Assembly (NCBI GenBank): GCA_018238625.1
Contig: JABCSY010000066.1
Span: 1-22,771 of the forward strand
Length of the DNA stretch: 22,771 nt
From: Promethearchaeota archaeon
GTDB taxonomy: Archaea > Asgardarchaeota > Lokiarchaeia > Sigyniarchaeales > SOKP01
Reading direction: 5' to 3'
The notes under the pieces were generated by a model that made no database searches, had not been told where the DNA came from, and saw only the letters and a list, made by a program, of their open reading frames with translations. Position 1 is the first letter of the stretch. Each line of letters starts with the position of its first letter. Shown one piece after another: positions 1,650 to 15,522 of this stretch. The translations under genes and the position numbers were made by a program.

Positions 1650-2420
1650 ATGGGAGAATTTAGTATGAGTGAGGTACCAATATTAGATGCTAAAACATCA
1701 CTAAAAAAAATGGCAAGTATAATCGTTGATATAAGCGGGCTCAACAGCGATTATATACCGAAATTAAGAATGCAACCCGAAAGCATTCTTGAAGAGTTAG
1801 AAAAATACGAAGATGAAAAGAATAACCTAATGAAAACTATCGAATCAAATAACGAAGAAATTAATTCCTTCAAGAATCAGATTTCTCAGAGTCAACGAGA
1901 TATAGCAAAAAATGAAGAAGATAACGTTGAATTAACTAAAAAACGCCAAGAATTATTACAAAAAATTCAAGAAAAACAAAATGAGTTGAATGAGACGCGT
2001 AAGACCATTAAATTGAAACAAGAAGAATTAGCAAGTCGGGATCAGCGTCAAAAAGAACTTGAAGATAGATTGTTTACTTTACATAAAGACATTGAAAAAT
2101 TTGAAGAAAAATTAAAAGCACTAGAAGCTGAGCTTGAAAATACTTTTATAAAGAAGGAAAAGTTCGTTCAATCGTACGAAAATAGAGTAGCCGCCATGAA
2201 AATTTTAATTAATAAGAAATACATAAACTCTTCATTATTTCAGTTTATCAAAGCCTTACAATTTGGAAGTGCTTTGTATTTAAAAAATATATTGCTTGCG
2301 ATTGATATGAGAGAAGACCAAGCCAAAAGAATTATAGTAAAAATGCTTGAAGATAACGGACCAATTGAATATAATCCAACGGATGGAACGATAACCCTAA
2401 AAGAAGAGGTTGATTTCTAA
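1650..2420 (+). CDS. Long coiled-coil protein with a C-terminal winged-helix-like domain
   Basis: About 150 aa of E/K/Q/L heptads, then LFQFIKAL...AKRIIVKMLEDNGPIEYNPTDGTITL. The real start may be ATG 1665, after GGAGA. Confidence 0.75.
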   Translation: MGEFSMSEVPILDAKTSLKKMASIIVDISGLNSDYIPKLRMQPESILEELEKYEDEKNNLMKTIESNNEEINSFKNQISQSQRDIAKNEEDNVELTKKRQELLQKIQEKQNELNETRKTIKLKQEELASRDQRQKELEDRLFTLHKDIEKFEEKLKALEAELENTFIKKEKFVQSYENRVAAMKILINKKYINSSLFQFIKALQFGSALYLKNILLAIDMREDQAKRIIVKMLEDNGPIEYNPTDGTITLKEEVDF

Positions 2421-3157
2421 TGAGTTCAAATTTAAAAGATATTATTGGATCAATTGAACAACTTGAAAAATATTTTGACGAATATCAGCAAACCTTTCAA
2501 AAAAATAGTGAAAATATCATTCAAAATTTAAGCTCAACATGGAAATTGATGAAATTAGAGCACGACGATCTCCAAAAAATAGAAAATAATATTGAAATTC
2601 AAAAGAATGAATTAACTGGATTAAAAATTAAATCTGATGATTTAAATAAAAAAATTGAAAGCTTAAAATCTACAAAGGACGATTCATTGACAAAAGTTTC
2701 GGAATTAAAAGGCACTTTAGAGAGAATTAACGACGATCTCAAGGCACCTAAAGTTGAGCTTGAAAACTTATTATCGAAGTTAAATACCATAAACGAAAAA
2801 ATCGCTTCAAAAGAGTTAGAAATGTCACAGTTAGACCAGAAAAAGATCGATAACGAAAACCAGGAAAATCAACTAAAAACAACGTATTCAGAACAAAAAA
2901 TGGAAGATTTAAATAAAAAACTAACTCATTTAAAAAGGGATAACTACTTTACATCGTTTTTAATAGAAAATTCTAAAGAAGAAATTCCTGAAGTAGATAT
3001 AATTGCCACTATTATGACTCAAGGTAGCTGTAATCTTGATGAGCTGAAAAAACTGCTTGACGTCCCTCCAATTATGGCTGTTAGAACTATTAAACAACTT
3101 GCAGTTAAAGGCATAATCAAATTAGACGAAGATACTAACATTATAACGATGCCATAA
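2420..3157 (+). CDS. Long coiled-coil protein with a C-terminal winged helix-turn-helix
   Basis: TAATG overlap with the upstream gene. Heptad-rich N-terminus. C-terminus GSCNLDELKKLLDVPPIMAVRTIKQLAVKGIIKLDEDTNIITM is a typical wHTH. Confidence 0.8.
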   Translation: MSSNLKDIIGSIEQLEKYFDEYQQTFQKNSENIIQNLSSTWKLMKLEHDDLQKIENNIEIQKNELTGLKIKSDDLNKKIESLKSTKDDSLTKVSELKGTLERINDDLKAPKVELENLLSKLNTINEKIASKELEMSQLDQKKIDNENQENQLKTTYSEQKMEDLNKKLTHLKRDNYFTSFLIENSKEEIPEVDIIATIMTQGSCNLDELKKLLDVPPIMAVRTIKQLAVKGIIKLDEDTNIITMP

Positions 3158-3407: not shown

Positions 3408-4589
3408 ATGGAAAATAAAGACATAATTATTGGAATCCTCTTAATTGCTAGCGTAGGTTTAGCGGGTGGATTAGGTTTTGTGTTAATTACATCACCACCA
3501 ACCCCTACTGAGGATCCAACAAATCTATTTGGTTTACCCGAAGATTGGAGCACCGCACCTAATGCGTCGTATTTTATGCTATATAACCAAACAGGAGCGT
3601 CCCTTACGGTGACTTTAAAAGATATTTTGGACGGTGTAGCTCTAGCTTACGAGGAACAAAACGCAGGTGGTTCTGAAATCAACGAGTACAAAAAGGTAAT
3701 ATATCCTTACACATTTCTTGAGCCAAGTTCTGGTTTATATGTTACTGGCGTGGATATTTTGGACATATTAGAGGCGTACGATACTAATTTTGGATGGGAT
3801 TTAAAATTCACATCCAATTTTGGGCATGAGTTAGACATAACAACTGGTGATATTGTTACTAAAATGTATGAAGGTGATGAAGAATCTGTTATCATTGTAA
3901 TTGCTGCAAATAAGAAATGGTTAGGAGAATCCTCCTTAGGAAAACAGTGGGGGAATTTCTCAATCGTAGGAGAACAAATGAGTTCGTCTATATACGACCT
4001 TCAAAAAATTGATGTTTTAAGCAATTGGACGGTTGAAATTGTTGTTAATGGAACAGTTGAATATGTTATTGATCCGATGAACATGACTTATAACGGATAT
4101 GACGATGTTTATCATTACGATCGGGACGATTGGTGGAGTTTCAATAGACATTATTGGGGTCGTAATATTTCAGAAATTATCTCACATACTTCTGCTGCGG
4201 GGTTAAATTATACTATGAGAGCATGGTCCGTTGATGGTTATGCAAGCCCTCGACCTTTCGGAGGTAAGAAAGAAGTGCAATATAATAACACTGAAATTGA
4301 ATTCGGTATTATTCCCCCAAGAGAGAGCTGGGATTTAATAAACGATACTGAAGTACCAATGCCTTTAACCGATTTATTAATGAGTTTAGTCTATGCTGAC
4401 CAAGAATTTGGAGAGACCGGACAAGGGATTACAGATCCGATATGGCCATATAGAAAAATGTGTGGCTACGGTAGGGGTCCATTTTATTTGCTTGTTCCAG
4501 GAAGACCTAGAGATGTCTATCTTTCTCACGTAAATAGAATCGAAATAACATCTTACACCGGGCCTATACCATCAGGATTTATATTTTAA
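3408..4589 (+). CDS. Membrane-anchored extracellular protein with two degenerate molybdopterin-binding (sulfite oxidase/MsrP-like) domains
   Basis: N-terminal TM and a PT-rich linker. Two similar units: TGVDILDILE...IVIAANKKWL...GNFSIVG...IYDLQKIDV and WGRNISEII...SVDGY...SLVYADQE...GPFYLLVPG...LSHVNRIEI. Many NxS/T sequons. Confidence 0.6.
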   Translation: MENKDIIIGILLIASVGLAGGLGFVLITSPPTPTEDPTNLFGLPEDWSTAPNASYFMLYNQTGASLTVTLKDILDGVALAYEEQNAGGSEINEYKKVIYPYTFLEPSSGLYVTGVDILDILEAYDTNFGWDLKFTSNFGHELDITTGDIVTKMYEGDEESVIIVIAANKKWLGESSLGKQWGNFSIVGEQMSSSIYDLQKIDVLSNWTVEIVVNGTVEYVIDPMNMTYNGYDDVYHYDRDDWWSFNRHYWGRNISEIISHTSAAGLNYTMRAWSVDGYASPRPFGGKKEVQYNNTEIEFGIIPPRESWDLINDTEVPMPLTDLLMSLVYADQEFGETGQGITDPIWPYRKMCGYGRGPFYLLVPGRPRDVYLSHVNRIEITSYTGPIPSGFIF

Positions 4590-4651
4590 TTAACTTTACA
4601 TTTTTTTTTATTTATATTAATATTATATTAATTCTAAAAAAAGTTGGAAAA

Positions 4652-5545
4652 ATGAAGTTTATTCATATTAGGACTATTGCAATTGGTTTAATTTTAGCAC
4701 AATTATTTTTATTCTTATCTTTCCCTCTTGCTTTAAGTTGGCCTGGATGGGGGGATTGTACAGATTATCATAAAGTGACGAACTTAACACCATTATATAA
4801 TAATGATGTGGGAATATCTCTGGATGGTATAGCATCAGAAAGCATCTGGACTGATCCAACTAATGACAATGGAACGCTTTCAGTACCTTTGGCTGGAGAG
4901 ATTGGAACTCCCGGATTTTATATTGTTATTCTCAATTTAACTTTTGTTATGGACGATCAATATTTATATATTCTATGCCAATGGAAAGATAATTCTACGA
5001 AACCAGATTTAGGAGGAAATTATTATGATGGGCTCTATTTCTGTTGGAATATAAACGTTCCTAATTTTTCTGCATATTTTAATGATGGAATGGTAACTGC
5101 TGAAATGGGTGGAGGTGATGTTGACTGTTGGGAATGGACTTGTTTAGAAGGTTCACCCCCAAACGGTTCGTCTTATTTTTGTAGAGATACGTGCTTTGGT
5201 ACAACAGGTTGGTACGATCCAAGTCTCGAAATTAAAGACGTTCAAATAGGGTATACTTACAGAGCAAACGATTCATATACTTTAGAGCTTAGAAGGAAAT
5301 TAGTAACAAACGATGATTATGACGTTCAATTTAATGAGAATAAGCTATATAAATTCAATCTTGGTATCATGAACGATGGATGCCATGAAGACCACGCAGT
5401 TTCTTGGACGTTTGCCTTAGATTTAAGAAAGGACGAAGTGCCTTCTATTATTTCAAACTACAATATTCCTATGCTTTTAATTATTAGTTCGATAGCAATA
5501 TTTTTAATTTTATTAAAAAAAAAATCAATCTTTACAAAAAGCTAA
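4652..5545 (+). CDS. Secreted DOMON-like/ethylbenzene-dehydrogenase-gamma-type heme-binding domain protein with a Loki-CTERM-like anchor
   Basis: Signal peptide; LDG...ESIW; YLYILCQWKD; DVDCWEW; YTLELRRKL...YDVQF; GIMND..H..H. C-terminal ISNYN followed by a TM helix and KKK. Confidence 0.65.
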   Translation: MKFIHIRTIAIGLILAQLFLFLSFPLALSWPGWGDCTDYHKVTNLTPLYNNDVGISLDGIASESIWTDPTNDNGTLSVPLAGEIGTPGFYIVILNLTFVMDDQYLYILCQWKDNSTKPDLGGNYYDGLYFCWNINVPNFSAYFNDGMVTAEMGGGDVDCWEWTCLEGSPPNGSSYFCRDTCFGTTGWYDPSLEIKDVQIGYTYRANDSYTLELRRKLVTNDDYDVQFNENKLYKFNLGIMNDGCHEDHAVSWTFALDLRKDEVPSIISNYNIPMLLIISSIAIFLILLKKKSIFTKS

Positions 5546-5546
5546 G

Positions 5547-6110
5547 ATGGAAAAGCGTAATTTCAATATATTGGTTGCTTCAATAATCATATGTATGTCC
5601 GTTTTTTGGTTGTCTGCATATAGTTTTGTTATTTTAGATATTGATCCATTCCACAACATTAAAAATATTTTTGGGGGGGATGATACAGTTGTTATTACGA
5701 TTAAAGGGAATGTCGTTGAGGAGTTTGAACTAACGCTATCTGAGCTTAAGTCTGATAAATACACCCAAGTAAAAGATGAAACATTTCACCTTATTAATGC
5801 TATTGGGAGAGAATTTGACACAGTTTATTCAGGCGCATCTTTATGGAGCATTTTAGAGGTTGAAAATCTTTTAGGAGTCGGCGCATCAACTTTCCTCTTT
5901 ATTGGTGCAGATGGATATTACGCCGAAACTCCATTATCGCTAGCTTTAGCCGAAAATAACACTGAAAAAGTGCTTTTAGCGTATGAAAAAAATGGAGAAC
6001 CTCTTTTTTTTGAAGGACCTGTCATGTCCGCGATTGACTATTCAGTTATACCCGATGAAATTACTACTCACTTCACGATAAAGTATTTAAAAACGATTTT
6101 AATTGAATAG
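5547..6110 (+). CDS. Membrane-anchored molybdopterin-binding-domain protein (Oxidored_molyb-like) lacking the Mo-ligating Cys
   Basis: ITIKGNV...LTLSELK; YSGASLWSIL; GADGY; VLLAYEKNGEPL..EGP; IKYLKTI. FHLIN stands where enzymes have xHCV. Confidence 0.8.
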   Translation: MEKRNFNILVASIIICMSVFWLSAYSFVILDIDPFHNIKNIFGGDDTVVITIKGNVVEEFELTLSELKSDKYTQVKDETFHLINAIGREFDTVYSGASLWSILEVENLLGVGASTFLFIGADGYYAETPLSLALAENNTEKVLLAYEKNGEPLFFEGPVMSAIDYSVIPDEITTHFTIKYLKTILIE

Positions 6111-6124
6111 GAGTTTAGTAGAAG

Positions 6125-6778
6125 ATGATGCCGAATAATAATAAAATTAATGTTAAGGATACAGAAGAATCGTTGGAGAAAATTGGTGGTCAAGATAAAT
6201 ATAAAACTACGGGATTTGGACAGCTTGATTCTAAAAAGTTAACCCTTCTTGATTTGTTATACTCAACTATAATAGGTGTTTTAGGTGGAATAATATCTAG
6301 CCTCATTCCTTTTTCACTATTAATAAAAGTCTGGTATCCTTTAACGGGTGGTACCCAGTTGGTTAGTGGACACCATGTGATATGGGCATCGATCGTTTAT
6401 GGGTTGACTCGAAAAAAAAAAACTATTCTCTTGACAATGATTTCAAAAGGATTAATCGAGTTTTTGTTAGGAGATCCATGGGGTTTAATTATTTTATTCG
6501 TCAATTTCATGGAAGGTATTTGCCTAGTGGGGGGATTCTTTCTTATGGAAAAGATTGGAGAAGGAGAGACGAAACTTGGATGGGGTATTGCTGGTGGATT
6601 TGGTAATTTCTTTCAAGCTCCCTTTTTCTGGATAGTAAATATGCGCTGGCATTTACACTGGACTCTTTGGGTTTTAGCCTTTATGTTTGCTTATATTTCG
6701 GGTATTCTTATAGTTGGATTGTTAGGTAGATCAGTTAAAAATTATTTAATTAATGCGGGAGTTCCCACAACTTTTTAA
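6125..6778 (+). CDS. ECF transporter S component (YkoE-like)
   Basis: About 6 TM helices; LTLLDLLYSTIIGVLGG, TRKK, GLIEFLLGDPWG, EG motifs; directly upstream of the ECF ATPase and T genes. Confidence 0.8.
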   Translation: MMPNNNKINVKDTEESLEKIGGQDKYKTTGFGQLDSKKLTLLDLLYSTIIGVLGGIISSLIPFSLLIKVWYPLTGGTQLVSGHHVIWASIVYGLTRKKKTILLTMISKGLIEFLLGDPWGLIILFVNFMEGICLVGGFFLMEKIGEGETKLGWGIAGGFGNFFQAPFFWIVNMRWHLHWTLWVLAFMFAYISGILIVGLLGRSVKNYLINAGVPTTF

Positions 6779-8591
6779 AAAGAGAGTGATTTCAATATCC
6801 TCAAACCCTAATAACGCTTTGTGTTTCAAGAATTTCTCATTTATTTATGGAAACGATAAAAATCTCCGGCCGGCGATTTCAGATGTAAGTTTTGATCTTA
6901 AAGAAGGAGAAATTTTAATTTTAGCAGGTCCAAGCGGAAGTGGAAAATCAACTCTTTCTTATGCGATGAGCGGCCTAATCCCTTGGAGATTAAAAGGATT
7001 TATGAAAGGAAGAGCTGAGATCTTTGGAAAAAGCGCTTGGGATTATGAATTCAAAGATTTATGCAAAATTGTAGGTTTAGTTAAACAAAATCCTCTTGAT
7101 CAAATGGTAACTTTTACAGTACGAGACGAAATTGCTTTTGGACTCGAGAATTTACAATATCCTAAGAACGAGGTTGAGGAAAGGATTGACGAAATTTCTA
7201 AATTGATGGGAATAGATCATTTATTAGATCGAGAAATTGAACAATTGAGTGGTGGTCAGAAGCAGCTTACTATTTTGTCTTCTTTTTTGGTTATGAAACC
7301 GAAAATTTTAATTTTAGACGAACCAATAGCTTTTCTAGATCAACAATCTGAAAGCTTGTTGTTAGATAGATTACACAAATTAACAAACTCAAAAGAATAT
7401 AAACTTGCTTTAATAATAATCGAACATAGATTGTCTCGAGTGGCTAATGTCGCTGACAAAATCATCGTTCTGAACGATAATGGAAGTATTGCCCTAAAAG
7501 GAAAGACTTCAGATATTTTAAGCGATCATTTCGACGATTTAAAGGCATGCAATGTCAGAGTTCCTTGGGTAATTAATGTGTTTAACAATTTTAAAAAAAT
7601 TCATAAAAATCCTCACCAGTTTGATAATATTACGAATTTTCAAAGCTGTTTAAAATTCATTGATGAACTTAACAAAGATAATTTGAAAAAATTACGTCAG
7701 ATAATCATAGAAAATGAAATCAAACCAACTACGCTAAAAAGATTTGAGGAATACGAGCAAATAATTAAATTTGGAGAGCTTTACGTAGAATCTTTAAAGG
7801 ATAAAGAATTTGGTGTGAGAAAAGCCAATAAACAACATTCAAATGCGATAATTGAAACGAGGAATTTAGAATTTGAATATCCAGATAGTAAAATTAAAGC
7901 TATTAAAAACCTATCAATAACAATACAAAAAGGAGATTTTGTTGGTCTAATCGGTCCAAATGGGTCCGGTAAAACGACGCTACTGTATTTATTGGCTAAT
8001 TTATATGAACCCACATCTGGAGAAATATTATTTAACAACCATAATCTAAAAGACATTGATCCATACACTCACGCACGAAATATTGGATTTATTTTCCAAA
8101 ATCCAGAAAATATGATTTTCAAACCTACAATTAAAGAAGAATTGCTTTACGGTCCTAGAAATTTTGGTATATTAGAAGATATTTCAGAAAATTATCTTTC
8201 AAAATTGATAAATCTAATTGGAAACGAGAGTTTAACAAAAAATCCTTTCAAATTAAGTTGGGGCCAAAAGCGAAGGTTAAATTTGGGCTCCGTTTTTATT
8301 TACAATCCTGAAATTATCTTATTAGATGAGCCATTTATCGGACAAGATCAAAAAACCATTGAGGCGCTCATTGAAACCTTATTTATTGAAAACAAACGTG
8401 GAAAAACCATAATAATATCTTCTCACGATTATCATTTGCTATTAAAATACACTAAAAGGATTATTGAACTAAATAAGGATGGAACTTTAAGGGACTACGA
8501 TGAAAATAGTAATTACTTTAAAAAACATAAAAACTTAGGTCCCATCATCTTATTAGATAAAATAAATGATAGGCTAAACGGGATAGAGTAA
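6753..8591 (+). CDS. ECF transporter fused double ATPase (EcfA-A')
   Basis: Two ABC domains: GPSGSGKS/QNP/LSGGQKQ/LDEP/IEH and GPNGSGKT/FQNPE/LSWGQKRR/LDEP/SSHD. The in-frame GTG at 6786 is a likelier start. Confidence 0.92.
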   Translation: MREFPQLFKKRVISISSNPNNALCFKNFSFIYGNDKNLRPAISDVSFDLKEGEILILAGPSGSGKSTLSYAMSGLIPWRLKGFMKGRAEIFGKSAWDYEFKDLCKIVGLVKQNPLDQMVTFTVRDEIAFGLENLQYPKNEVEERIDEISKLMGIDHLLDREIEQLSGGQKQLTILSSFLVMKPKILILDEPIAFLDQQSESLLLDRLHKLTNSKEYKLALIIIEHRLSRVANVADKIIVLNDNGSIALKGKTSDILSDHFDDLKACNVRVPWVINVFNNFKKIHKNPHQFDNITNFQSCLKFIDELNKDNLKKLRQIIIENEIKPTTLKRFEEYEQIIKFGELYVESLKDKEFGVRKANKQHSNAIIETRNLEFEYPDSKIKAIKNLSITIQKGDFVGLIGPNGSGKTTLLYLLANLYEPTSGEILFNNHNLKDIDPYTHARNIGFIFQNPENMIFKPTIKEELLYGPRNFGILEDISENYLSKLINLIGNESLTKNPFKLSWGQKRRLNLGSVFIYNPEIILLDEPFIGQDQKTIEALIETLFIENKRGKTIIISSHDYHLLLKYTKRIIELNKDGTLRDYDENSNYFKKHKNLGPIILLDKINDRLNGIE

Positions 8592-8593
8592 AA

Positions 8594-9478
8594 ATGGGTA
8601 CTAAAAATAAAGCTTTGGACCATAAGAAATTTATATTCGCTTATTTCCCCGGCAAATCTTTAATGCATAGGCTAAATCCAATATCAAAAATAATTTTTCT
8701 GGTTCTACTTACGATCCTTACTTTTACAATTAATAGCGTAATTTTCTTAGCTTCTATATCGTTTTTTTTAATTGTTTTAGCGCTAACGAGCGGAATAACT
8801 TTGAAAAACTTAGTTAAGAAATTAAAATTTATTATATTTATTCTTATTTTCAGCGTGGTCTTAAACATTTTTTTTAACGCAATTCCGAGCGACCAAGATG
8901 TAGTGCTATTTTACTTGTTTAACTTGTCTTTTTTACCAATTAGGAGATTAGCTTTATATTTTGCGCTAAGGGCATTATTTATTGTATTAACCTTGTATAC
9001 TTCTGCGATTATTTTCACAAGTACAACATCCATGAAAGATTTTGTTTATTCGCTAATAAGACTAAAAATACCCTACTCATATTGTTTTTCTTTTATGGTT
9101 GGTATTAGGTACATTCCTTCAATTGAAGACGAAGCCAAAACTATCGCCTTAGCTCAAAGAGCTCGCGGTTTAGGCTTGGAAAAAATTAGTTCGATAAAAA
9201 AAGCGTATAATTTAATTTTTGAGAGACTTGTAACGACATTGGTTTCAATTTTAAGAAAAACCCATACAACATCGATTTCAATGGAAAGTCGCTGTTTTGG
9301 TTTGTACAAAAAAAGAACTAATTTAATAAAAATAAGTTTTAAAGCAAAAGACATCATTTTTATCCTTCTTTGTATAGGGGTTTTTATTACAATTATTTTA
9401 TATTTATTAAAATTGCTTCCACTCCCTCCAATTCCTTCCTTATATAATATTTTTACTAACAATCTAATGATGTTATAA
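8594..9478 (+). CDS. ecfT: ECF transporter transmembrane T component (CbiQ/EcfT family)
   Basis: SLMHRLNPISK, TTS..D, GIRYIP, AQRARG and SMESRCF (the two conserved x-R-x motifs). Confidence 0.92.
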   Translation: MGTKNKALDHKKFIFAYFPGKSLMHRLNPISKIIFLVLLTILTFTINSVIFLASISFFLIVLALTSGITLKNLVKKLKFIIFILIFSVVLNIFFNAIPSDQDVVLFYLFNLSFLPIRRLALYFALRALFIVLTLYTSAIIFTSTTSMKDFVYSLIRLKIPYSYCFSFMVGIRYIPSIEDEAKTIALAQRARGLGLEKISSIKKAYNLIFERLVTTLVSILRKTHTTSISMESRCFGLYKKRTNLIKISFKAKDIIFILLCIGVFITIILYLLKLLPLPPIPSLYNIFTNNLMML

Positions 9479-9589
9479 AAAGATATTTTTATATCACATA
9501 AATTTTAAGTATAAAGATTCCATTTATTTTTATAACTTTTTTGAATAAGGATTAATAATAAATATAAGATTTTTTAAGAGATAATTAAC

Positions 9590-10252
9590 ATGCGTCCTCA
9601 ACAAAATTCATACAAAATAATTTTACTTATTTCTATTGGATTAATAGTTGCTTTAGCATTGTTGTTAAATGATTCTATGATTCTTATTTTCCCTCTTTTT
9701 CTACTAATTTGGATGTTTTTCCCCAATCATGTTGAAGAAGCAGATTGGTCAAAGAATAAATCATTTATTTTTTATTTAATAATTGGCACAATCGTGGGTT
9801 TAATTACTGAGTTATTTGCAATCTTAAATAATTTGTCAAAACCTCCAGAAGAACGAATATTATTTCATCCAGATCCCGCTATTAATATTGTTTTAGCAAT
9901 TTTTTATTACTTTCCTATATTTTTTTTTGCTGCAATTATCCTCCATAAATATAAAATGACGGAAATAAATGTATTTTTAATTGGAGGTATATACGGAATC
10001 TGTACAGAGCAAATGTTTCAAATCTTATTATCTTTTAATCTGATTCTATGGTTTTATGTCTTTCTTGTATATGGTTCATTTATAACAATACCTTATACTA
10101 TTTTTAAGAATAGACTTAATAACTTCGATCTAAAAGAAATTAATAAATTAAAATCAATGATTATACTTTTTATTGCGCTTCTTTTGGGTTTTATTGGGGC
10201 TTTTTTACTAATGGGAATTGCTTGGATACTTCTTGGTTTACCTCTAGTTTGA
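9590..10252 (+). CDS. Polytopic membrane protein of unknown function
   Basis: About 7 hydrophobic segments; intramembrane GLITE and GGIYGICTEQ motifs. Confidence 0.75.
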   Translation: MRPQQNSYKIILLISIGLIVALALLLNDSMILIFPLFLLIWMFFPNHVEEADWSKNKSFIFYLIIGTIVGLITELFAILNNLSKPPEERILFHPDPAINIVLAIFYYFPIFFFAAIILHKYKMTEINVFLIGGIYGICTEQMFQILLSFNLILWFYVFLVYGSFITIPYTIFKNRLNNFDLKEINKLKSMIILFIALLLGFIGAFLLMGIAWILLGLPLV

Positions 10253-13537: not shown

Positions 13538-14410
13538 ATGCTAAAAGCTTCTGAGATTGTGAAAGAGATACAAAGTAAATACAAAATCATTGGGAGAACT
13601 GAAGAATTAAAAAAAATTGTGTTAGCACATTCAGTAAGCAAGAATATTTTATTAGAAGGTTCAGTAGGTGTGGGTAAGACCAGGATCGCAAAGGCAATTG
13701 CTTCTTATTACGATATTGGTTTTGCTCGAATAGACTGTTCAGAAGAAACGCTTGCTCATAATTTGGTTGGTTATTGGGACCCACCAATGGTGATTTCAAA
13801 GGGTTATATAGAAGACGCTTACGTTTATGGGCCACTTTCTTCATCGATGCTCAAAGGTGGGTGTCTTTTTATTAACGAAATAAACAGAATGCCTGAAAGC
13901 ACTCAAAACTCTCTTTTAACTGCATTAGACGAAGGTACGATAGAAATACCTAAACTAAAAACAATTAAAGCTCATAAAAAGTTTTTTGTCATTGCCACAC
14001 AAAATCCTGCCGCTCATATAGGCGTGACCGTTATAGGCGAGGCATTGAAAGATAGGTTTATTTGGATAAAATTAGATTTCCAGCCTCCTGAAGAAGAAAT
14101 TCTCATTATTAAACAAGAAGCCAATCTGAGTAATCCTAGTGGCGATAAAATCGCAAAGATTTCACAACAAATAGTTCAAATTTCAAGAAATATTACATCA
14201 ATACGCAGGGGCAGTTCGATAAGAGGCGCAATTGACTTAGCAGATTTAATTTCTAAATCGGAAATTGAAAATAGCTCAAAAAATTGGGTCGATGCGGCAA
14301 TCATGGCTTTGTATAACAAGATTGACCTTGAAGATGGCGTAACCAGTTCTAAAACCGAAATTATTACAGATATTGTGCTATCAGTTTTAAACAAAATGGA
14401 TTTTCAATAG
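13538..14410 (+). CDS. MoxR-family AAA+ ATPase
   Basis: Walker A GSVGVGKT, Walker B variant LFINEINR, IATQNP, ALKDRF (Arg finger), SIRGA (sensor 2). Confidence 0.92.
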   Translation: MLKASEIVKEIQSKYKIIGRTEELKKIVLAHSVSKNILLEGSVGVGKTRIAKAIASYYDIGFARIDCSEETLAHNLVGYWDPPMVISKGYIEDAYVYGPLSSSMLKGGCLFINEINRMPESTQNSLLTALDEGTIEIPKLKTIKAHKKFFVIATQNPAAHIGVTVIGEALKDRFIWIKLDFQPPEEEILIIKQEANLSNPSGDKIAKISQQIVQISRNITSIRRGSSIRGAIDLADLISKSEIENSSKNWVDAAIMALYNKIDLEDGVTSSKTEIITDIVLSVLNKMDFQ

Positions 14411-14447
14411 TCGATGATTTCTCTGCGGAGGATTCCGAGGAGATTGA
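14386..14447 (+). promoter_or_regulatory. Candidate -1 programmed ribosomal frameshift signal (two slippery heptamers plus a 3' hairpin)
   Basis: T_TTA_AAC (14386-14392) and G_GAT_TTT (14398-14404) are both in the correct MoxR phase. A hairpin at 14411-14447 begins 6 nt after the second. Confidence 0.65.
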
Positions 14448-15522
14448 GAGTAAAAGGCTTCATGTTAGACTTACAGAAAGGATTCCCGACGGAGAGATCT
14501 TAAGATTTGAAATAATTCGGAAAAAAAGGAAAAAACCAGATTATTACCAGCATTTGGCAAATACTTTAGACTACAAGCAAATTAAGGAACTGACTTACTT
14601 AGCTATTCAACACAAGAATCTCGAAGCAATGTTAGGCTTACTTAAGTCAAACGTATACGCCGCAACCGACGCTTTGGATTGTGACGAGGGCGTGCAATTC
14701 TTCACAGAAAAAGCAAGAAATTCTGAAGCCTCTATGGCAGAAGTCTACTTCTTTATCAGACGTCCAATTTCAGAAAAATACAAAAAGATTTTTAGAAGGC
14801 TAGCCAGACAGAGCATATTGAAAACTTCGTTAAAAATAACAAGCAAGGGAATTAGAGGAAATTATAAGAAAACTGTCCCTTATTATCATGTTGGTATGCC
14901 AGAGTTTGACTTAGATGAAACTATCCAACACAATCCATTGAATATTTACAAAAAAAGCTTAACTTATAAAGACATCTACGGAATAAGAAGACAACGACAA
15001 AAAAGAAAAATTATTCTGATTCTTGACACAAGTGGAAGCATGTACGGCAAACTTTTGCTTAATGCGGCTCTTACTACTTCCGTTTTAGCCTATAATATGG
15101 AAAAAGAAGAATACGGTATAGTTTTATTCAACTCTACCGCAATGGTTCTAAAAAAGATCGACGAAAAAAAGCCAATTATAACAATAATCGACGAAATTTT
15201 GGATTCTGAAGCCGTTGGTTTTACTAACATCCATATTGGTTTAGAGAAAGGGTTGAAAGAATTAGATAAAATTAAAGAAAGAACAAGAAACAAATTTGGA
15301 ATTTTAATTAGTGATGGTAACTATAATAGAGGGGATAACCCAATCGACTTAGCGAAAAAGTATCCTAAATTACATGTAATAGGGATACCTGCCGAAAATG
15401 ATGCCGCAAGAGGCATCGATACGTGCAGAGAAATTGCTAAAGCGGGACAAGGTAAGTTTTTTGCCGTAAATAATTACAGAGAAATTCCGAGGGCATTAAT
15501 CGAACTATTATCCCAAATTTAA
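14404..15522 (+). CDS. vWA-domain protein (CoxE/ChlD-like); probably the -1 frame extension of the MoxR gene (ORF-track start is TTG 14554)
   Basis: FDLDETI, MIDAS LILDTSGSM, GFTNI, LISDG. The frame is open from 14353 with no ATG/GTG/TTG before 14554 and encodes SIVDDFSAEDSEEIESKRLHVRLTERIPDGEILRFEIIRKKRKKPDYYQH. Confidence 0.85.
   Translation, partial: SIVDDFSAEDSEEIESKRLHVRLTERIPDGEILRFEIIRKKRKKPDYYQHLANTLDYKQIKELTYLAIQHKNLEAMLGLLKSNVYAATDALDCDEGVQFFTEKARNSEASMAEVYFFIRRPISEKYKKIFRRLARQSILKTSLKITSKGIRGNYKKTVPYYHVGMPEFDLDETIQHNPLNIYKKSLTYKDIYGIRRQRQKRKIILILDTSGSMYGKLLLNAALTTSVLAYNMEKEEYGIVLFNSTAMVLKKIDEKKPIITIIDEILDSEAVGFTNIHIGLEKGLKELDKIKERTRNKFGILISDGNYNRGDNPIDLAKKYPKLHVIGIPAENDAARGIDTCREIAKAGQGKFFAVNNYREIPRALIELLSQI

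Follow-up and report, generated by a model that had tools for sequence, protein, structure and literature searches.

A predicted −1 ribosomal frameshift joining a MoxR-type ATPase and a von Willebrand factor A adaptor in Asgard archaea

Introduction

How is an open reading frame (ORF) translated when it overlaps the end of the gene before it, in another frame, and offers no canonical start codon near its beginning? The question is raised by a locus in a stretch of 22 771 nt from a Promethearchaeota archaeon (contig JABCSY010000066.1 of assembly GCA_018238625.1, positions 1–22 771; the window, in what follows), where a gene for a MoxR-type AAA+ ATPase is followed by an ORF for a protein with a von Willebrand factor A (vWA) domain and its metal ion-dependent adhesion site (MIDAS). 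To judge from comparative sequence analysis, a −1 ribosomal frameshift at the heptamer G_GAU_UUU very probably joins the ATPase and the vWA adaptor as one recoded gene. The proposal of the initial annotation, that one locus gives both a free ATPase and a MoxR-linker-vWA fusion of ~660 aa, is supported by a conserved frame relation, a motif kept at synonymous positions, selection on the −1 frame, and natural in-frame fusions.

Organization of the locus

The features of the locus, all on the forward (+) strand, are as follows.

13538..14410, +: ORF of the MoxR-type AAA+ ATPase in the 0 frame, 290 aa, ending in TAG 14408–14410 (ORF list and translation)
14386..14392, +: second in-phase heptamer, U_UUA_AAC, not conserved (phase check and ortholog comparison)
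14398..14404, +: slippery heptamer G_GAU_UUU, proposed site of the −1 shift (0-frame phase and ortholog conservation)
14404..14553, +: −1-frame coding stretch without ATG, GTG or TTG, encoding an acidic linker and the first part of the helical domain (translation and selection analysis)
14404..15522, +: −1-frame part of the predicted fusion, 372 codons and stop, comprising the linker, a helical region of ~170 aa and the vWA domain (translation and Pfam)
14408..14410, +: 0-frame stop codon, one codon past the heptamer (sequence)
14411..14447, +: imperfect purine/pyrimidine stem-loop, with the best-kept core at 14420–14429 pairing with 14434–14443 (fold and family comparison)
14554..14556, +: TTG, the first canonical start of the vWA frame, encoding a conserved internal Leu and not conserved as a start
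15025..15039, +: MIDAS motif D-T-S-G-S of the vWA domain (coordinates from sequence)

The vWA frame is −1 relative to the MoxR frame; it is closed by TAA at 14350–14352 and open from 14353 to TAA 15520–15522. The apparent gap of 143 nt between the two genes (14411–14553) is accordingly open in the vWA frame and holds no canonical start. Every statement of the initial annotation on this open frame, including the lack of ATG, GTG and TTG until 14554, agreed with the sequence, the acidic run that it quoted is encoded within 14411–14553 by translation, and both of its candidate heptamers, T_TTA_AAC at 14386–14392 and G_GAT_TTT at 14398–14404, lie in the correct 0-frame phase.

In the scheme that we infer for the slippage, its efficiency and the cellular role of its product, most ribosomes would terminate at TAG 14408–14410 and release the free 290-aa ATPase, and a fraction would slip back by one base on G_GAU_UUU; tRNA-Phe would then pair anew on U_UUU, and tRNA-Asp would retain the first-position pair on GGA. 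The slipped ribosomes would continue in the −1 frame to a product of about 661 aa, made up of the ATPase minus its last residue, the acidic linker, the helical region and the vWA domain with an intact MIDAS. The slip rate would probably be raised by the adjacent 0-frame stop and, in many lineages, by a downstream stem-loop. Tetramers of the form Z_ZZN, such as U_UUC and U_UUU, direct −1 frameshifting (PMC4066793, available text), and the idea of a “shifty stop” goes back to Weiss et al. 1987, as cited in the available part of PMC5009743; by analogy, the MoxR-vWA locus may be a site of this kind. The fusion could enter the same ring as the free ATPase, because it would contain the same AAA+ module, and would thereby tether the vWA adaptor to the ring, in the manner of BchD/ChlD with BchI/ChlI. 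The fusion may be a minority product and may set the ratio of vWA adaptor to hexamer, as the initial annotation supposed.

Frame relation among Asgard relatives

A whole-genome search of 400 members of the phylum with the −1-frame protein gave matches at E ≤ 1e-30 in 256 of them, and the close public proteins are named as Promethearchaeota, Lokiarchaeota, Hermodarchaeota, Thorarchaeota and Hodarchaeota, that is, as Asgard archaea. Loci were chosen by hand from the 256 matching genomes to cover the family-level groups. The first batch comprised 85 loci, 84 of them with both genes and one (L056) cut by a contig end; later batches added five loci from one genus and 20 from nine other genera of the window's family.

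Alignment of the orthologous loci, proposed in the initial annotation as a search for a conserved −1 overlap, found that relation kept in 96 of the 109 two-gene loci; eight were at +1 and five were fused in frame. The −1 state was seen in 20 family-level groups and is present in closed one-contig genomes (G032, G038, G171, G033, G055, G107 and G216). The two frames overlap by 10–295 nt in the −1 loci (median 46). Several overlaps measure only 13 nt and start exactly at the heptamer equivalent to 14398–14404, and therefore the shift must fall between the heptamer and the stop. The 0-frame stop stood 0 or 1 codon past the A-site codon in 73 of 75 −1 loci.

The contigs of four public runs from separate studies showed no inserted or missing letters, and the check for an assembly indel that the initial annotation had called for was thereby answered in the negative. 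DNA contigs from two other studies spanned the site with 0 and 1 differences, and a 4459-nt RNA-library contig of a relative (65 differences) spanned both genes without a gap, in a library that may contain DNA. Contigs hide rare variants; an assembly error is excluded.

The slippery site and its conservation

In 74 of the 76 −1 loci the last four MoxR sense codons include an in-phase U_UUN; the bodies of these genes would lead one to expect 8.6 such loci. The two exceptions were one locus with U_UUU_UUC five codons before the stop (L045) and one with A_AAC_CCU (L038). A strict X_XXY_YYZ heptamer was present in 40 of the 76 loci (2.6 expected). The forms seen at the site, strict or not, were G_GAU_UUU (28), A_AAU_UUU (15), U_UUU_UUA (8), U_UUU_UUC (7) and others that were rarer.

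The first base of the heptamer is the third position of a 0-frame codon, and translation in the −1 frame begins only downstream of it. First and second base were identical in 86 of 95 loci, where 23.0 would be expected, and within the window's family in 35 of 40 loci against 6.2 expected, though codons of the NNG type are rare there; the majority of loci matched in 18 of 19 families. This match is the strongest single result of the analysis, as a base identity that tRNA re-pairing after a −1 slip would require and that neither protein does. Codon usage adds to it: the gene bodies of one GC-rich family (f4) use TTT for Phe 7 times versus 55 times TTC, yet the site reads GAT TTT TTC in all three of its loci.

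The two candidate heptamers of the initial annotation fared differently. G_GAU_UUU is conserved. U_UUA_AAC is confined to 4 loci among the 40 of the window's family, apart from a variant in one more locus: of the first 35 loci, those of the four closest genomes (L001–L004) have it and L022 has UUUAAAG, and it is found in none of 20 further loci of the family. On this comparison, the frame arrangement and the second heptamer are conserved far beyond chance and the first heptamer is not. The second heptamer is taken as the site that would be used, because U_UUA_AAC is unconserved and because, in several relatives, a stop closes the −1 frame before the second heptamer is reached; U_UUA_AAC is probably incidental.

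Start codons and selection on the −1 frame

Measured from the end of the MoxR stop, the position of the first canonical start in the vWA frame varies between −282 and +603 nt among the 76 loci, with a median of +67; in 59 of them this start is over 40 nt downstream. No canonical start spans the MoxR stop in 67 of the 76. Neither a canonical nor a near-cognate start was present between the opening of the −1 frame and 12 codons past the site in 8 of 75 loci, belonging to five families.

Between the site and the TTG, a stretch of 50 codons, the ratio of nonsynonymous to synonymous differences (pN/pS) was 0.18 in the vWA frame, versus 1.03 and 1.36 in the other two frames (20 loci of the genus, 190 pairs). 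The distance from the shift site to the stop was 354–377 aa in the 74 loci measured. Public gene calls for the vWA protein, recorded as “VWA domain-containing protein” or “Mg-chelatase subunit ChlD”, range over 289–367 aa with differing starts, without a fusion among them; in the window, the called protein of 322 aa lacks about 50 conserved N-terminal codons. A conserved independent vWA start, together with a lack of conservation in 14404–14553, had been named beforehand as the outcome that would speak against recoding; the relatives have no such start, and the stretch is under purifying selection.

These data also bear on the notion that an assembly indel split a single gene or that the vWA ORF is a start-less pseudogene. 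A frame break at a homopolymer in a single genome can indeed be an error; here the same arrangement recurs in 96 independent assemblies, closed genomes included, contigs of the four separately studied runs carry no indel, and the pN/pS value and the invariant MIDAS residues are at odds with decay. We assign such an artefact or decay a practically negligible probability.

Fused and +1 relatives

The in-frame fused homologs that the initial annotation suggested looking for do exist. In one genus, five of seven genomes carry a single in-frame AAA-linker-vWA ORF (L063 and L087–L090), with open frames of 668–732 aa, one of them truncated where its contig ends, that run through “..F-F-R..” encoded by TTT TTT CGN. 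The remaining two genomes of that genus are at +1 at the same run. A sixth case is a second, divergent copy in genome G397 (L092), a 644-aa in-frame ORF with AAA_5 and VWA matches. The +1 state was found in L060, L062, L064, L065, L069, L070, L073 and L086, which belong to four other Asgard family groups; TTT TTT CGN was present in every +1 locus inspected in detail, and some loci of the +1 and in-frame groups also have possible ATG or TTG starts nearby. A tree of 87 loci was calculated from the core regions of the two domains, without the junction, and at least five changes are needed on it to account for the three frame states.

Both halves are intact whatever the frame relation, and the fused genomes argue that the single polypeptide is a natural product and viable. 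The +1 loci may use +1 frameshifting or slippage at the same hotspot. A “hungry codon” account of them was dropped, since CGN is not rare there.

The runs also bring in transcriptional slippage, by which the polymerase would add a U within the T run and a share of the mRNAs would encode the fusion in frame. The site is always a T run, T6 or T8 in some lineages, the −1 and +1 states both sit at the run, as would be expected from transcripts with insertions and deletions, and poly-A/T runs are known slippage sites (PMC3711429, available text). The window, however, has only T4, as do 42 of the 75 −1 loci, four others having T3, and the runs for realignment quoted in the available text of PMC3711429 are much longer (>7 A or >8 T). 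Selection on the base before the P-site codon points instead to tRNA re-pairing, and the contigs from RNA libraries are free of indels, with the reservation that rare variants are lost in contigs. Slippage of the polymerase is in our estimate a very improbable source of the fusion.

Coupled initiation and other points against frameshifting

Several observations weigh against a ribosomal frameshift and are collected here, together with those on RNA structure below. The loci, being hand-chosen, are a non-random sample, and related ones are not independent. The re-pairing of the tRNA from GAU to GGA is imperfect. Among the efficient tetramers in Escherichia coli, which include U_UUC and U_UUU, rates were 0.26–5.6% even with a strong stimulator (PMC4066793, available text), and therefore the fusion may be a minor product. 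A word-based protein search for longer relatives (652–2000 aa) of the −1 product returned none; this search was weak, and the whole-genome search did find fusions. Lastly, separate initiation of the vWA protein is possible at some loci, as TTG, GTG or ATG overlaps the MoxR stop in 9 of 76 and a canonical start lies near the site in 15 of 75, and a stop 0–1 codon past the site nearly everywhere is also predicted by coupled translation.

According to the coupled model, ribosomes would restart near the MoxR stop on a non-canonical codon and make a free vWA protein, the locus thus giving two separate proteins and no fusion. The −1 relation would then be the product of the common 4-nt stop/start overlap, of which the nine loci with TTGA, GTGA or ATGA are instances, and the stop next to the site in 73 of 75 loci would follow as well. 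A near-cognate codon (CTG, ATT, ATC, ATA or ACG) is found near the site in 52 of 75 loci, in the window ATA at 14407–14409. Against this, the codon overlapping the stop varies (ATA, GTA, TTA, CTA and others), and the eight loci described above have no start of either kind. A restart, moreover, needs neither the in-phase U_UUN (74/76) nor the match of the first and second bases (86/95), and the in-frame fusions show a single polypeptide to be viable. Coupled restart is possible above all at the TTGA and ATGA overlaps and leaves the selection on the heptamer unexplained; as a general account of the locus we regard it as unlikely, and the −1 ribosomal frameshift is preferred.

Downstream RNA structure

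The arms that the initial annotation paired, TCGAT at 14411–14415 and ATTGA at 14443–14447, are present together with the inner pairs, and RNAfold of 14405–14470 gave a stem-loop of −13.1 kcal/mol. The hairpin nevertheless folds no better than chance sequence of the same dinucleotide composition (78 of 200 shuffles folded at least as well; z −0.17). In comparison with 50-nt windows of its own two genes the stretch is at the 2nd percentile of fold energy, and the same comparison over 82 loci gave a median percentile of 0.106, with 26 loci below 0.05. The hairpin of the window is a putative stimulator of the shift.

Within the window's family (40 loci), the 9-bp core 14420–14429/14434–14443 pairs in 87.2% of cells versus 37–63% in slid controls; only 10 cells, in three pairs, are compensatory, and the pairing scheme had been taken from the window. 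The best-kept core begins 15 nt past the heptamer, and only the outer arm, in invariant columns, begins at 6 nt. With 20 or 40 family loci RNAalifold yielded just a weak outer stem, and the consensus of the 40 was itself weak (−3 kcal/mol, covariation term +0.19).

As to the covarying hairpin predicted for orthologs, the evidence is divided. For all 55 −1 loci outside the family, RNAalifold gave no consensus pairs, in an alignment broken by indels, whereas in 22 loci outside the family, picked by eye, a stem ~9 nt past the heptamer has compensatory changes in six of six pairs. A rule-based test, involving no picking, asked for a perfect stem of ≥6 bp starting 3–12 nt past the heptamer. Such a stem was present in 20 of 75 loci, where 3.3 were expected; these loci come from 10 of the 19 families, with none from the window's family or from family f2.

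Some further features of this region are recorded here. RNAalifold pairs GAUU of the heptamer with AAUC or AGUC 6 nt downstream (window 14399–14412), a helix of 4 bp that is invariant in the family, shows no covariation, and would need to be opened before the site is read. The motif CCGAUGA follows directly after the 3′ arm in many families outside the window's (L037–L084), ~25–35 nt past the heptamer, and encodes x-D-D/E at the end of the acidic linker; the window has CGAUGA right after the stop, at 14412–14418. An Rfam search of 14250–14650 gave one chance-level match to a long non-coding RNA and none of relevance. A scan for bacterial-type promoters and terminators placed no terminator between the genes, with a model that is uninformative for an archaeon.

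Protein domains and kinship

The ATPase matched Pfam AAA_5 with 72.5 bits (cut-off 22) and AAA_3 with 71 bits (cut-off 27), and its best NCBIfam match was GvpN, at 67.8 bits and below the cut-off of that model. Its relatives in the PDB include bacterial MoxR (2r44, 54.9 bits), NorQ and CbbQ. The vWA ORF matched VWA with 37.8 bits (cut-off 23.8) and VWA_2 with 29.2 bits, likewise above cut-off. In 35 aligned orthologues the MIDAS residues D208, S210, G211, S212 and D304 are invariant and T274 nearly so. The first 15–25 residues of the −1 frame form a variable acidic linker, followed by the conserved helical region and the vWA domain.

The −1 product sequence had no match in the PDB, its profile matched generic vWA domains only, and the helical region before the vWA domain had no sequence relative there. 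PADLOC returned weak AAA matches only. The neighbour genes of the window were not found beside the pair outside the genus.

Three candidate affinities were rejected. Identity as a chelatase medium subunit (ChlD/BchD/CobT) was discarded, as the BchD-ChlD model TIGR02031 scored 18 bits versus the required 499.55 and TIGR02442 22.5 versus 779.45. A chelatase partnership was discarded likewise: the only CobN-type gene of the genome is on another contig (C150), directly after a 656-aa chlD-type gene of its own. Yeast midasin was the top PDB match to the ATPase by summed score (135.5 bits), and a special kinship to it was set aside, since this is a sum over six AAA modules, the best of which scores 44.3 bits and hence less than MoxR 2r44.

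Two observations concern the chelatase-like genes of the same genome. On contig C150 (L093) the 656-aa chlD-type gene occupies 4157–6127 and the CobN-type gene 6132–9932; a run A10 occurs in the linker of the former (ORF nt 1151), where the −1 frame is open for 21 codons, and the run is possibly a slippage site giving a short ChlI-like product. On contig C82 (L094, ~2410–2440, minus strand) the AAA+ core of a second ChlI/ChlD-like gene is interrupted by a frame-shifting insert of 32 nt. Three genomes of the genus have the insert in one and the same position (also L115 in G006 and L116 in G008), and intact homologues lack it. Its fold has a 4-bp helix, CCGA/UCGG, flanked on both sides by small bulges, and a further, inner helix of 6 bp; cuts in the bulges would remove exactly 32 nt, making the insert a candidate bulge-helix-bulge intron in a protein-coding gene.

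Novelty and implications

Literature searches on frameshifting with MoxR or von Willebrand proteins, or in archaeal ATPases, returned nothing relevant; the supplementary cluster lists of GeneTack and of the chlD studies were outside their scope and might hold an AAA/vWA cluster. A search on Asgard archaea with ribosomal frameshifting returned only work on IS982, which is not relevant here. We rate chlD-type recoding as known and its MoxR-type Asgard counterpart as new. Cellular programmed frameshifts in archaea are few, a 2016 review naming the chelatase of Methanococcales and a possible case in Sulfolobus (PMC5009743, in the part available).

If the reading is true, conservation of the site in the majority of the Asgard families sampled would place it among the most broadly distributed cases in archaea, and the production of a short AAA+ and a long AAA+-vWA protein from one gene would extend from chelatases to MoxR-type chaperones. 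Annotation would be corrected as well, for the separate vWA calls, whose N-termini differ by up to 78 residues, overlook the fusion and ~50 conserved codons. The site is present in the closed genomes of cultured Asgard strains, in which the prediction is directly testable.

A wider and more tentative proposal, which we hold to be rather doubtful at present, is that an ancient, Asgard-wide recoding site sets the number of MIDAS adaptors per MoxR ring. Its U run would have been re-set repeatedly among the −1, +1 and in-frame states, and different lineages would arrive at one AAA-acidic linker-MIDAS protein by −1 shifting, by +1 shifting at UUU_UUU_CGN or from a fused gene; this protein would be a one-module counterpart of midasin in the closest archaeal relatives of eukaryotes.

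Comparison with known systems

MoxR-class ATPases encoded directly upstream of a MIDAS-bearing vWA protein are also found in NorQ-NorD, CbbQ-CbbO, RavA-ViaA and GvpN systems. Such MoxR AAA+/vWA partners act together, and are described as two separately initiated proteins. The vWA ORF of the present locus differs in having no conserved start and in being reached by a predicted frameshift.

Midasin (Rea1/Mdn1) has AAA_5-type modules, a D/E-rich linker and a C-terminal MIDAS domain, and the predicted fusion would mirror this layout of AAA, acidic linker and MIDAS, which is meant as analogy and not as ancestry. There is one AAA module here versus six in midasin, and the vWA profile misses the midasin MIDAS domain at E 0.01.

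Some of the heptamers are those of viruses, in which U_UUU_UUA serves HIV-1 gag-pol and G_GAU_UUU dianthovirus; G_GAT_TTT is found in 28 and T_TTT_TTA in 8 of the 76 −1 loci. The present sites differ in that they lie in a cellular archaeal gene, with a stop 0–1 codon past the site.

In dnaX of E. coli, a −1 shift on a heptamer with a downstream hairpin gives two AAA+ products, tau and gamma, which share identical N-terminal parts and enter one complex in a set ratio (PMC3711429, available text). The shift makes the short product in dnaX and would make the long one here, and dnaX uses A_AAA_AAG with an upstream Shine-Dalgarno-like stimulator.

The closest parallel drawn in the initial annotation, chlD, is a real precedent (PMC3711429 and PMC9227772, available text). 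In bacteria and Methanococcales, chlD gives short AAA+ and long AAA+-vWA subunits by −1 frameshifting on A runs (also PMC5009743, in part), and its two ORFs have been annotated as separate genes, with fused homologues elsewhere (PMC3711429, PMC9227772). The likeness lies in a short AAA+ protein made by termination and a long AAA+-linker-vWA protein made by a −1 shift, both from one locus. The Asgard locus differs in its AAA+ domain, which is of the AAA_5/AAA_3 MoxR type, in its putative slip site, which is N_NNU_UUU beside a stop instead of the A_AAA_AAR or A runs of chlD, in lacking a CobN/ChlH neighbour, and in that +1 and in-frame states also occur.

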